From Escherichia coli (GTDB lineage: Bacteria; Pseudomonadota; Gammaproteobacteria; Enterobacterales; Enterobacteriaceae): 49,226 nt of DNA. Every line of letters begins with the position of its first letter. The first letter of the stretch is position 1. Location: the NCBI RefSeq assembly GCF_003334765.1, contig NZ_QOWT01000030.1, one strand, 5' to 3'. Positions 15,001 through 18,000 of this stretch are shown here, in pieces. The position numbers are program-made.

Positions 15001-18000
15001 TTGGTCGGTTATTCATGTCCGTCAGCAACTCCCGAAGGCGTGCATTCAGCGCCCTGAGCGTGTGGAAGGTTTCATTACGGATGCGGGCAAGAAGCCATCG
15101 CTCGACGATGAGGACGCCGTTTTCTGCTTTTGGTTTATCTTTAGGTTTGCGCGGGCGGGCCGGGATAATAACCGTGCCATAGTGCTCAGCCAGCGCCTGA
15201 TAACTGTCGTTGATGACAGGCTCATAGCGATCGGCTTTTTTCACTGCGCTTCTGAGGTTATCGGGGATGAGCAGCTTCGGTACGCCGCCCAGGAAGGTCA
15301 GGCAACGGCTGTGGGCATTTAACCATGACATCATGTCCTGACCTTCGCACGCTTCAACATAGGTATAGTTGGACGCCCCCATTACAGCCACGAAGATTGC
15401 CACGCGGCGTATCTCTCCGGTGTCCGGATTAATAACAGGGACCGTAGGACCACAGAAGTCGATAAAGAGCTTTTCGCCAGCACGATGCTCCTGTCGCATG
15501 GAGAGGCGTCGCGTTTTTTTCCACTTCCGGTAGCAACGGCAGAAGTGTGAGTATCCCATCGCTTTGTCACCCGCCTGTGCCTTGTATTCCATCCACAACA
15601 GTTGGCGCGTCACGCCAGGTTTTCTCATTTCCGTATCGAAGTACAGCATGTCAGGCATAACAAGCTCTGACGCAGAGGTGTCTTGTAAGGTTAGTTTTCA
15701 GACGGACAATGAAATGAGGATATGCGATAAATTTCAGTCAAAGATCCATAAAACAGACATATTGTTATTCAGTGGTGAACAGTCCATTCCGGAGACGGAA
15801 TATCTTGTTAAGGCTGTATATTATACTGGCTGTAAACAACATGGCCACCAAGGACCATGTTGTTTACAGCATACCCTTGTTGCAAAAGAATCCCCGTCAG
15901 AACAGCACTGAGTAGTTCAGACCAAAGGTTCGGCCCCGGCCTTTGTAGTCGTACAGTGAAGCAGGGCCGTAACCCGGGCTGTAGTACAGAGGTGCACGCT
16001 GTCCCCAGACAGTGGTATAGTCACGGTCGAAGAGGTTCTCAACGCTGAAGCTGAGTGTTCCCACCGGAAGCAGCCAACTACTGATAAAATCGACGGTAGT
16101 GTAACCATTAATATCGTTACCCTCTGCATCGCTTACGTCGAAAGAAGTGGTGCTCTGCACACGCAGACTCCACGGTTCCGGCGCCCAGCTAATGTAAGCT
16201 GTCGCTTTCGATGGACTTGATTCCTTCACGTCATATTTTTGCCATTGACCGTTCACTTTCGACTCGGTTTTCAGCACATTGAAGTTCACACCGGTACTCC
16301 AGTCAGTATCCGGGATCAGGTAGTCCACCGCACCTTCCACGCCGTAAATACGGCGCCTGTCGTCCTTCACACTGATGGTCAGATCTTTATTCCTTTCCAC
16401 GCTCTTATTGGAAAGCGAGTAATATGCTGCGATTTGAGTCCGCAGGTTGTCACCGGTAAAGCGCCAGCCCAGTTCATAAGAATCGACTTTCACGCCTTCC
16501 AGCTTACTGTCGCTGACGTTCACGCTCTTTGTCAGGGGAAGATGGCCGTTCACTGCTGCACCATAGATGCCGCGACCATAATATTTCCCCGGATCCGGCA
16601 ATGCCACCCCCTGGGAAAAATTGAACCATGCCTGCTGACGTTCGGTGATGTGCATCAGCAGACCAGCATTGAACAGAAAGTTATCGTAATCTACCGAACC
16701 ACCAGGAATGGCGTCGGCAGATATCGCCTTCCCGGCAGCAATCTTCTGTTGCTGCGTGTAGTCGATAAAATCATCTACCCTGTTCTCAGTATACTGATAG
16801 CGTACGCCACCGCTGACGGTAAAAATATCATTAATGTCATAGCTGGATTGCAGGAAGGCCGCCAGATTGGTGATGTCATATGACGGATAGCGCCCGGTGG
16901 TGTAAATCTTATGGTTGTTCAGCCCTCCGGAAGCACTTGCCTGAGCCAGATCGAAGAACATCTGGTTGGAGGTAAAGCGCTCATGCTCAGCATCCAGCCC
17001 CCAGGTGATTTGCCAGCCGTCCATCAGTTGGCTGTTCAGAGTCAGTTTCATGCCGTACTGGTCGGTATCCTGCTGTGACGAGGAGAAAGCCGTCGCCTGT
17101 TTATTCGCATTTACCGTCGGGAACGGGTAGAACCGCAACGACTCATCGCGGTAGTAAACCTGACCGACCAGTTCCTGTCTCAGGAAATCACTGTCAGAGT
17201 ACTGCAGGCTGATCAAATGCCGCTCAGTGCCGGGAATGCGGTCAGAATTCAGCCCCTTACTGACGTATGGTGTGCTGCTCCCGCTGATGGCGGAAAAGCC
17301 TTTCCCGAGATTAAGCCCGTAATTGTCGTCCCCCTGACTTTTATAGTACTGCGTTATCAGTTGAAGCTGCCGGGATTCATCGATGTTCAGCGTACCGGTT
17401 CCCATGATGTCCAGCCGATTGGAGTGCTGCAGGCCGGTCTGGGTGTTATCAAGCAGGGTGGCATCGCCGTTACCGTCAAACCAGCCGCCAAATTTCTGAT
17501 ATGCCACGGAAAGACGTCCGGAGATATGGTCATTTCCGCCGGAGACAGCACCGGCAATGCGCTCATCGTGATCTTTACTGCTGTTAAAGCCACTTTTTGT
17601 GCCAGCCTCAAACTCCATCATGGTTTCCGGCTGGCCTTTTTTGGTCACGATGTTGATCAACCCTCCGGTACTCCCGCCACCGTACAGGGCCGTCGCGCCG
17701 GAGATCACTTCAATATGGTCGATATTAAAAGGATCGACAGAGTCCAGTTGTCGGCTGTCGGAACGTGAAGAGTTGAGGCGCACACCGTCAATCAGGACAA
17801 CCAGCGGGCGGCCACGCATGTTCATACCGTAGTTGGTTCGGCTCTGGCTGCTGACATCAAGGCCGGGGATTAACTGAACCAGTGCGTCTTTCAGCTCTTT
17901 ACCGCCCTGAATCTGCTGCTCCAGTTCGGCATTTTCGATAACCCAGGTGGTTTGCGCCATCTCCGCTACAGTTCGATTGCTGCGGCTGGCAGACACTATG

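Follow-up and report, generated by a model that had tools for sequence, protein, structure and literature searches.

Extragenic palindromes of the REP/BIME type stabilise the mRNA upstream of them, while palindromic sequences in E. coli are also subject to quasi-palindrome mutagenesis, in which template switching copies one arm onto the other. A further kind of 3'-terminal structure has been described for E. coli transcripts that depend on Rho, whose 3' ends feature stable stem-loops, a low U content and a mild excess of C over G downstream (Dar & Sorek 2018, PMC6061677). In the following, a perfect palindrome next to the aerobactin receptor gene iutA is set against these systems, based on a window of 49,226 nucleotides of Escherichia coli DNA, a term that denotes the whole stretch analysed. 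Judged from sequence comparison and structure prediction, this palindrome is most likely an ordinary RNA hairpin capping the 3' end of the iucABCD-iutA mRNA, and not a scar or island boundary. A search of the literature on an iutA or aerobactin terminator, a stem-loop or the DNA downstream of iutA yielded nothing relevant. The features concerned are as follows, in the direction of iutA transcription:

15897 to 18092, minus strand: iutA, encoding the ferric aerobactin receptor, a TonB-dependent siderophore receptor; last gene of iucABCD-iutA, with the stop codon TGA at 15899-15897, and named iutA in matching records
15874 to 15888, minus strand: predicted small 6-bp RNA helix, CUUUUG-CAA-CAAGGG, of the iutA 3' UTR, past the stop codon and ahead of the main hairpin
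15829 to 15870, minus strand: main stem-loop with perfect 16-nt arms; 18 pairs and a 6-nt loop, CUUGGU, in sense RNA
15820 to 15847, minus strand: sigma-70 promoter-like match, -35 TGGCCA, 16-nt spacer, -10 TATAAT, agreeing at 10 of 12 positions
15685 to 15828, minus strand: AT-rich stretch downstream on the sense strand, C 22% and G 14%; candidate Rho loading region
15786 to 15801, unstranded: small inverted repeat ATTCCGGAGACGGAAT with a 6-bp stem and a 4-nt loop
13571 to 15684, minus strand: truncated IS21-family (ISSso4-like) element, with one 695-aa frame encoding both the IS21 transposase and the IstB domains

The palindrome is composed of two perfectly complementary 16-nt arms, 15829-15844 (GCTGTAAACAACATGG) and 15855-15870 (CCATGTTGTTTACAGC), which are separated by a 10-nt spacer. 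The sequence-only reading from which the analysis started had described an exact 15-bp palindrome at 15830-15869; its presence and its spacer stand, whereas the length does not, as the outer G-C pair had been missed. The arms contain seven G or C among their 16 positions (44% G+C for the stem), and in RNA of iutA sense, which is read from the minus strand, an additional U.G and an additional C-G pair bring the stem to 18 pairs and narrow the loop from 10 nt, as counted in DNA, to 6 nt. It constitutes the longest perfect inverted repeat of the window. For a sequence of 49,226 bases, the number of perfect 16-bp inverted repeats (loop of 3-20 nt) that should arise by chance is about 2e-4, and shuffled sequence contained no match; the palindrome is real and far above chance expectation. 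Neither a second copy nor a half-site is present elsewhere in the window, including the other end of the aerobactin operon, and the hairpin is not flanked by direct repeats. A dispersed repeat such as a REP or MITE was considered and ruled out by the single copy per genome and the lack of any further copy in the window. In addition, a scan of 15400-16200 against Rfam 15 (E <= 10) returned nothing above the gathering score, and the only sub-threshold matches, to microRNA precursors (21 bits versus a gathering score of 50.2), are meaningless since any long hairpin yields such matches.

With respect to iutA, the hairpin begins 26 nt past the TGA on the minus strand. Its placement immediately downstream of the gene in the sequence-only reading is accurate for this strand only, on which iutA runs from 18092 to 15897. 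The exact 731-aa IutA protein is also present on public contigs in the same iucC-iucD-iutA-IstB neighbourhood. The small helix between stop codon and hairpin comprises two U.G pairs and hence would pair fully only in iutA-sense RNA. It is predicted in variants with the homologous hairpin, except in the E. fergusonii and O170 plasmids, and its U.G pairs are converted to C-G or U-A in other lineages by one-sided changes; the helix being short, it carries little weight as evidence. Folding, the check proposed along with the palindrome, yielded a strong stem of -29.1 kcal/mol for the window hairpin, compared with -12.0 +/- 2.6 kcal/mol for shuffles (z = -6.5), while the four iutA-linked variants range from -18 to -30 kcal/mol with z values of -3.7 to -6.7. 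On the plus strand the main hairpin is nearly equal in stability (-29.0 kcal/mol), and for the ColV variant antisense folding exceeds sense folding in stability (-23.9 vs -19.0 kcal/mol). Since the strand energies are so alike, or even favour antisense in ColV, thermodynamics names neither the acting strand nor RNA over DNA, and assignment of a strand by folding energy was dropped as uninformative for the window hairpin.

The hairpin displays the stable stem-loop near the stop codon that is typical of an intrinsic terminator (16-18 bp, -29.1 kcal/mol, 26 nt after the TGA), yet a run of U directly 3' of the stem is missing on either strand. Of the first 8 nt of the sense tail (CAGUAUAAUA) two are U, and of those of the antisense tail on the plus strand (AUACCCUUGU / AUACCCUU) three are. 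The absence of a clear U-tract, already remarked upon from the sequence, holds for both strands, and a terminator consensus scan reported the main hairpin on neither of them. Of the terminator option put forward initially, the terminator-type structure is retained, its position being that seen in orthologues and its pairing being kept by double substitutions, whereas the missing U tract departs from a canonical intrinsic terminator. A 3'-end protective or Rho-associated stem-loop therefore appears to be the better fit. At the same place, the distant iutA orthologues of Buttiauxella, Trabulsiella and Vibrio carry true terminators with U tracts.

Among 5,426 complete E. coli genomes, 987 possess the hairpin, at one place per genome (two at the highest) and always at the aerobactin locus, with E. 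coli A28 as the sole exception; in 923 of the 987 it is near-invariant. Absence of the palindrome from other aerobactin loci had been named as a refutation of the initial proposal, but the ColV/Klebsiella type, the O170-plasmid type and the E. fergusonii type all possess it. Of 15 pairs, 14 are retained on ColV and Klebsiella plasmids, while a 12-bp stem is kept on the E. fergusonii and Salmonella plasmids. The O170 plasmid features a different but likewise perfect 16-bp stem (GCUGAUAUCAACAUGG/CCAUGUUGAUAUCAGC) with three pairs switched on both sides, double changes that are adjacent, separate only two lineages and may represent one or two events. The two perfect forms, that of the window and that of O170, disagree at 6 of the 32 arm positions, and between variants the loop differs in sequence as well as in length (8, 10 or 17 nt). 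Pairing at this site is conserved through compensatory change, although templated correction of quasi-palindromes could give rise to double changes without selection. Two further peculiarities were observed at these loci: in one strain an ISL3 element is inserted at the arm sequence with a target duplication of TATATCA, and ColV-type loci feature a second perfect palindrome, of 22 bp, 6 nt further on.

The more divergent Klebsiella iuc3 plasmid, where an unrelated short hairpin is found instead, and the IS-disrupted LH10-b-1 locus, whose iutA lineage has lost the distal arm, are the only ones to lack the hairpin. These exceptions indicate that this particular hairpin is dispensable. In E. coli A28, which harbours a copy without iutA, the arms are mismatched and the fold is no better than shuffles (-11.2 kcal/mol, z -0.17). 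This copy is read as a relic, and the idea of a module independent of iutA, first hinted at by A28, was abandoned, the arrangement occurring in 1 of 5,426 genomes and its hairpin being degenerate.

Beyond the homologous forms, 77 readable iutA loci from other species were surveyed, in most of which the stop codon is followed by a stem-loop no more than about 30 nt away. In 17 Enterobacteriaceae loci a common GC-rich hairpin with a CCGG core and no U tract is found, in which seven pairs have changed on both sides; its covariation amounts to 27 cells versus 12.8 in shuffles, and none of 500 shuffles reached 27. This hairpin also includes G.U pairs that work only in sense RNA. Going by its position, it may be regarded as an analogue of the E. 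coli hairpin, while homology cannot be shown. In Phytobacter massiliensis, a real REP follows iutA.

Downstream of the hairpin, the 144-nt stretch of the window shows a C/G ratio of 1.6, as opposed to 0.93 in the iutA coding sequence; the corresponding values are 1.95 in the E. fergusonii type, a weak 1.2 in ColV and 1.0, i.e. no excess, in the O170 plasmid. The stretch 15685-15828 is common to chromosomal aerobactin islands at 98.6-100%. It is also a remnant of an unrelated small plus-strand plasmid gene, namely of its 5' end; the part 15685-15768 shows about 80% identity to a 113-aa gene of pCUWW11C, over the promoter and the first 17 codons. Within it, the small inverted repeat at 15786-15801 is terminator-like on the plus strand according to the scan and is also seen in the sense-strand fold. 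A plus-strand ORF of 65 codons (15714-15911) runs through the hairpin; a family search with its plasmid homologue gave no match and the frame is interrupted in A28, and it was rejected as a gene in favour of a gene remnant. At about 15684 the IS21-family match breaks off within istA of ISSso4, some 190 nt from its start, which sets the junction between the aerobactin 3' region and the IS21 remnant at 15684/15685, 144 nt beyond the hairpin, and agrees with the earlier siting of the palindrome between the operon and this remnant. In four different contexts, the sequence shared among loci extends some 20-30 nt further than the hairpin, with homology between replicons fading beyond, and the homology junctions near the window hairpin lie at about 15808-15822 and at 15684.

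Conserved pairing could also come about if a neutral palindrome hitch-hiked with iutA and was re-perfected by intrastrand template switching that copied arm onto arm. The block of three adjacent pairs is explicable by one arm change plus one templated correction, and the mixed look of the A28 copy, with one arm of each type, the stability without strand asymmetry and the existence of iutA lineages without the hairpin are in keeping with such a history. Nevertheless, a stem-loop at this position is the rule across many genera and in unrelated sequences, and together with the independent covariation and the sense-strand G.U pairs this argues for selection on structure after iutA. The near-invariance in 923 of 987 E. 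coli genomes and the decay of the single copy without iutA likewise speak against neutrality, which we consider unlikely. A plus-strand or two-way barrier that halts antisense transcription into iutA from downstream genes or insertion sequences would profit from a plus fold that is equally stable (-29.0 kcal/mol) and, in ColV, stronger than the sense fold, from a plus tail (AUACCCUUGUUG) that contains slightly more U than its sense counterpart, from the second terminator-like plus-strand hairpin just upstream (15786-15801) and from flanks whose IS elements and gene relics vary. It is rendered decidedly unlikely, however, by a plus tail whose first 8 nt include only three U and which failed the terminator scan, by the lack of a conserved plus-strand gene ending here, the 65-codon ORF 15714-15911 passing through, and by the small helix and the G.U pairs of the orthologues, which favour iutA-sense RNA.

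Other readings place the function in the DNA itself. The fading of cross-replicon homology 20-30 nt past the hairpin, the ISL3 insertion at the arm sequence, found in one strain along with its TATATCA duplication, and the second perfect 22-bp palindrome 6 nt on in ColV-type loci could all reflect a DNA-level site, be it the operator of a dimeric protein, a recombinase or transposase hairpin or a junction scar ending a mobile aerobactin cassette. Such a site is very improbable, though, given its single copy, without a partner at the operon's other end or flanking direct repeats. Furthermore, complementarity is conserved but arm sequence is not, and a loop of 8 to 17 nt is unsuited to a fixed protein site; the constant half-site and spacing of a dimeric operator were not found, with arms differing at 6 of 32 positions and loops of 8, 10 or 17 nt, so that the protein-binding palindrome suggested from the sequence is unlikely. 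Its other suggestion, a recombination or insertion scar marking the island boundary, fares no better, as the hairpin is followed by quite different downstream DNA in CFT073 and the O170, ColV, Klebsiella and E. fergusonii plasmids. In alignments with these and FORC029 conserved sequence continues beyond the hairpin, which lies inside it, the real junctions being those at about 15808-15822 and 15684, and the scar was rejected; a homology breakpoint combined with a target-site duplication or partner repeat, as would mark an IS/MITE end or scar, was not found at the hairpin. A DNA junction hotspot that joins a portable iuc-iut cassette to new backbones and is kept perfect by templated correction would explain the homology fade, the ISL3 landing and the mixed-arm A28 copy without iutA, and is rated as highly improbable. 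As to an outward promoter driving a minus-strand downstream transcript, the promoter-like match overlaps the loop and distal arm, which would supply the -35 element, places TATAAT past the stem and is directed away from iutA. It agrees with the sigma-70 consensus at 10 of 12 positions with a 16-nt spacer, and the ColV and O170 variants likewise carry TATAAT or TACAAT directly behind the stem; shuffles, however, give about as many matches (2 found versus 1.3 expected), the -35 element is poorly conserved and the downstream DNA differs by context, hence no conserved product exists. The match is probably fortuitous because nothing is conserved downstream, and the promoter reading is exceedingly improbable.

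We favour, with reasonable rather than firm confidence, the reading that the palindrome encodes a stem-loop at the 3' terminus of the iron-regulated iucABCD-iutA transcript, which would probably be ended by Rho and trimmed by exonucleases. RNA polymerase would cross iutA on the minus strand, and the transcript would fold into the small helix and then into the very stable 16-18-bp hairpin 26 nt past the stop codon. Since a U tract is absent, the hairpin alone is probably poor at releasing polymerase, and transcription would end further downstream, probably by Rho loading on C-rich, G-poor untranslated RNA. Subsequently, 3'-to-5' exonucleases would trim the RNA back until blocked at the hairpin, which thereby would fix the mature 3' end and stabilise the receptor-coding end of the message. 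The structure, its position, its conservation by compensatory change and the missing U tract are observed, whereas action as RNA, the involvement of Rho and protection from exonucleases are what we infer. The locus agrees with the Rho-dependent ends described in PMC6061677 in having a stable stem-loop without U-rich sequence after it and an excess of C over G downstream (1.6) that is mild, as in that study. If true, the hairpin sets the 3' terminus of a major siderophore operon associated with virulence, that of E. coli, Shigella and hypervirulent Klebsiella, and probably also the stability of the receptor-coding message end. Its use would be modest, providing an exact operon end for annotation, a natural U-less stabiliser element and a clear case from nature of a 3' stem-loop evolving by compensatory change, while the understanding of aerobactin systems or of terminators is unchanged by it.

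Compared with known systems, the window hairpin resembles a canonical intrinsic terminator in its strength and its position past the operon's last gene, but differs in having neither a U tract on either strand nor an upstream A tract and in escaping the terminator scan, and its 44% G+C stem and 6-10-nt loop may set it apart as well. With REP/BIME elements it has in common that it is extragenic, palindromic, located 3' of a gene and potentially able to block exonucleases; unlike them, it is single-copy and iutA-specific and carries no GTAG/CGTC tag or REP consensus. With the CCGG-core hairpin of Citrobacter, Salmonella arizonae/diarizonae, Enterobacter, Cedecea, Siccibacter and others it shares position, lack of a U tract and covariation, whereas that hairpin is of unrelated sequence, GC-rich and 9-14 bp long with a 4-nt loop. 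Finally, the likeness to the protective stem-loops of Rho-dependent transcripts lies in its stability, its location soon after the last stop codon, the tail that is not U-rich and the mild downstream excess of C over G, while it differs from them in being unusually long, perfect (16-18 bp) and AT-rich.

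The inverted repeat under study lies 3' of iutA, the ferric aerobactin receptor gene that closes the iucABCD-iutA operon, and its parts are arranged as follows:

18092 to 15897, minus strand: iutA, with its TGA stop codon at 15899-15897
15829-15844: iutA hairpin, arm 1, perfect, 16 nt, GCTGTAAACAACATGG
15855-15870: iutA hairpin, arm 2, perfect, 16 nt, CCATGTTGTTTACAGC

On the coding strand the hairpin follows the iutA stop codon after 26 nt, its arms being separated by a 10-nt spacer. The 15-bp repeat described in the sequence-only reading is thus present, though with 16-nt arms, one pair longer on each side, and its observation that a U tract is missing holds for both strands, neither of which revealed one upon inspection. 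In the sense RNA, which corresponds to the minus strand, the stem reaches 18 pairs by addition of a U.G and a C-G pair, leaving a loop of 6 nt. This is the longest perfect inverted repeat of the window; base composition predicts ~2e-4 such perfect repeats per 49 kb, and no equivalent emerged in 100 shuffles. A 50-nt RNA containing the hairpin folds at -29.1 kcal/mol compared with -12.0 +/- 2.6 kcal/mol for shuffled sequences (z = -6.5), and a terminator scan did not include the site among its predictions.

The stretch 15682-15960 is present at 98.6-100% identity in chromosomal aerobactin islands, that of CFT073 among them, and more divergent loci retain the hairpin with altered sequence. The plasmid of an O170:H18 strain features a perfect 16-bp stem (GCUGAUAUCAACAUGG-10 nt-CCAUGUUGAUAUCAGC), in which three base pairs are exchanged on both arms compared with the window. 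On ColV-type E. coli plasmids and Klebsiella virulence plasmids the stem is of the AUAU form, the alternative arm type also seen in the O170 plasmid, with a single mismatched pair and a loop of 8 nt; on plasmids of E. fergusonii and Salmonella the outer 12 bp pair perfectly around a 17-nt loop. The comparison among aerobactin loci that was proposed from the sequence alone therefore recovers the hairpin in the CFT073, ColV, O170 and E. fergusonii types, but not in a Klebsiella iuc3-type plasmid, where an unrelated 7-bp GC hairpin follows iutA, nor intact in E. coli LH10-b-1. In a six-variant alignment pairing holds for 90% of cells, with two-sided changes at three pairs, whereas sliding the partner columns lowers pairing to 29-55%; all four iutA-linked variants fold far better than their shuffles (z -3.7 to -6.7). 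Since the arms of the two perfect forms differ at 6 of 32 positions, at least as strongly as their flanks, and yet each change is matched on the opposite arm, it is complementarity rather than arm sequence that is conserved. In a 6-bp helix located between the iutA stop and the hairpin, U.G pairs give way to C-G or U-A, changes that fit the iutA-sense RNA only, although this helix is small and carries little weight. In ColV/Klebsiella-type loci, the iutA hairpin is followed after only 6 nt by another perfect palindrome, whose 22-nt arms flank a spacer of 17 nt (1410-1470 of the fetched pCREC-544_1 locus, L003; same region in L004); in its Klebsiella copy, 6 nt of one arm are duplicated.

Searched with a 77-nt query that has the hairpin at its centre, 987 of the 5,426 complete E. 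coli genomes gave a match, 923 of them at >=99% identity, with a median of one and a maximum of two places per genome. Given about one place per genome and no further copy or notable half-site within the window, a repeat family was ruled out, as was a known RNA family, because an Rfam search returned only microRNA-precursor matches, all below threshold. Some chromosomal loci (FORC_029, L002; EcPF7, L092; and L072) contain a 16-bp tandem duplication, ATACTGGCTGTAAACA, in which 10 nt from the start of one hairpin arm are repeated; this duplication is the probable reason why most of the 62 genomes at 95-99% identity fall into that range. An E. coli-type iutA (99% identical) with an identical hairpin also occurs in metagenome-assembled genomes assigned to Collinsella sp. 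and a Bacillota bacterium (L005, L072), almost certainly due to binning contamination.

In the five chromosomal or plasmid loci inspected the hairpin adjoins iutA, the sole exception being E. coli A28 (NZ_CP028747.1 chromosome, L091 570-790), where a ~85% identical copy of the 205-bp block 15685-15890 has no iutA beside it and is flanked by rclC and an autotransporter pseudogene. Homology ends ~6 nt before the expected stop-codon position, and the arrangement occurs in one genome among 5,426. The A28 arms are of mixed type, one window-like and one AUAU-like, and the hairpin folds at shuffled level (-11.2 kcal/mol, z -0.17); although a single case, this is the picture to be expected if constraint is relaxed once the upstream gene has gone, and the copy may have been left behind by a lost aerobactin island or have arisen by recombination. 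In LH10-b-1 the hairpin arm sequence is the precise insertion site of an ISL3-family element (L093 2620-3945), TATATCA apparently being the duplicated target; as loop and distal arm are missing, this divergent iutA allele lacks the 3' hairpin, which is hence not indispensable.

Among 80 iutA loci fetched from one-genome-per-species contigs, 77 were readable, and most of these possess a stem-loop within ~30 nt of the iutA stop. Distant relatives (Buttiauxella, Trabulsiella, Vibrio) exhibit textbook terminators with U tracts, while the closest relatives of E. coli IutA, encoded by Citrobacter koseri, Salmonella arizonae and diarizonae, Enterobacter, Cedecea, Siccibacter and others, are followed by a GC-rich CCGG-core hairpin devoid of a U tract. 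In 17 such loci two-sided changes affect 7 of 13 pairs, covariation amounts to 27 cells versus 12.8 when shuffled (0 of 500 shuffles as high), and several pairs are G.U in sense orientation, and a U-less stem-loop straight after iutA is thus a feature under selection across genera. In Morganella (L063, L065, L068, L069) an ORF starting ATGCGTATATT begins ~10 nt after iutA without a hairpin, so iutA is not the last gene of its unit there. The window itself contains another receptor gene of identical architecture, in which the stop is followed by a long perfect hairpin lacking a T tract:

46164-48254: second TonB-dependent receptor gene, 696 aa, matches NCBIfam PRK13486 over its full length, probably Iha
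48284-48328: hairpin 29 nt after the receptor stop, 15-nt arms AATACGTTGCCACTG/CAGTGGCAACGTATT, 15-nt loop

Beyond the hairpin, sequence common to all aerobactin types stops at ~15808-15822, and the adjoining block, 15685 to ~15808, is a relic: over its first 84 nt it shares ~80% identity with the promoter and initial 17 codons of a gene carried by the small plasmid pCUWW11C (L094 2033-2374; 113 aa, hypothetical membrane protein). A plus-strand ORF of 65 codons (15714-15911, MRICDKFQSKIHKTD...), which crosses the hairpin and overlaps the iutA end, resembles the same gene at ~80% identity over its start and 30 nt upstream and looks like a gene remnant. Next to this block lies the IS21 remnant:

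13571-15684: ISSso4-like IS21-family element, truncated inside istA at ~15684

The element ends 144 nt past the hairpin, in agreement with the earlier placement of the palindrome between the aerobactin operon and the IS21 remnant. The remnant forms one 695-aa frame with IS21 transposase and IstB helper domains, and since both share a single frame the normal istA stop seems lost. The idea that the palindrome is a scar or island boundary is not supported, as the true junctions lie elsewhere (~15808-15822 and 15684).

Further genes of the window comprise a type I restriction-modification operon (3656-12280), into which a DarT/DarG pair has been inserted, separating the S from the R gene, and a group around a helicase-like ORF:

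3656-6094: hsdM
6088-7434: hsdS-like ORF, weak
7446-8102 and 8087-9166: DarT/DarG toxin-antitoxin pair
9185-12280: hsdR
30618-33299: 893-aa ORF with SF1 helicase similarity, weakly matching anti-phage helicase families (ProA, Hhe)
33540-34274: filamentous-haemagglutinin repeat fragment, near this ORF
35833-36492: ECs1377-family gene, near this ORF

Several other roles of the hairpin were considered. The hairpin is unlikely to be an operator for a protein or a site of recombination, because the arm sequence is not conserved, loops range from 8 to 17 nt, a partner site is lacking, and conserved sequence runs 20-30 nt past the stem in four different contexts. A promoter scan yielded a promoter-like match overlapping the hairpin on the minus strand (-35 TGGCCA, 16 nt, TATAAT at 15847-15820), which is not followed by a conserved product. 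It is possible that the hairpin counters antisense transcription or works bidirectionally, since folding energy does not separate the strands (-29.1 vs -29.0 kcal/mol) and the ColV variant folds better on the antisense strand. Finally, the compensatory pairs could have arisen without selection, from a change in one arm and templated quasi-palindrome correction: the three pairs are adjacent and divide essentially two lineages, and the mixed-arm A28 copy fits this process as well as it fits decay.

With the structure, position and conservation of the hairpin established, its role is rather probably that of a protective or termination-associated 3'-terminal stem-loop of the aerobactin mRNA, with release largely Rho-dependent downstream. 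At the RNA level, the hairpin would end the operon mRNA and shield its 3' end against exonucleases, while polymerase would be released further downstream, largely by Rho. The terminator option of the sequence-only reading is thereby supported, though in modified form: being a stable stem-loop that differs from the canonical intrinsic terminator by the absent U tract, the hairpin does not qualify as one. In E. coli, 3'-end mapping revealed that Rho-dependent transcripts stop right after stable stem-loops without U-rich tails, with a mild excess of C over G downstream, and provided evidence that such stem-loops block PNPase and RNase II (Dar & Sorek, PMC6061677). Past the window hairpin, the sense strand contains 22% C and 14% G (C/G 1.6; iutA 0.93); for the E. 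fergusonii type C/G amounts to 1.95, for ColV to 1.2 and for the O170 plasmid to 1.0, the latter featuring a short GC stem and a T-run ~45 nt past the hairpin, possibly a conventional terminator. Taken together, the hairpin is an ordinary, well conserved operon-end stem-loop of a kind already known, mildly notable only in that the stem is long and perfect, that lineages differ by a cleanly compensatory exchange and that hairpins without a U tract are general after iutA. Compared with the CCGG-core hairpins, it constitutes a long AT-rich analogue, which resembles them in its place and in being U-less.
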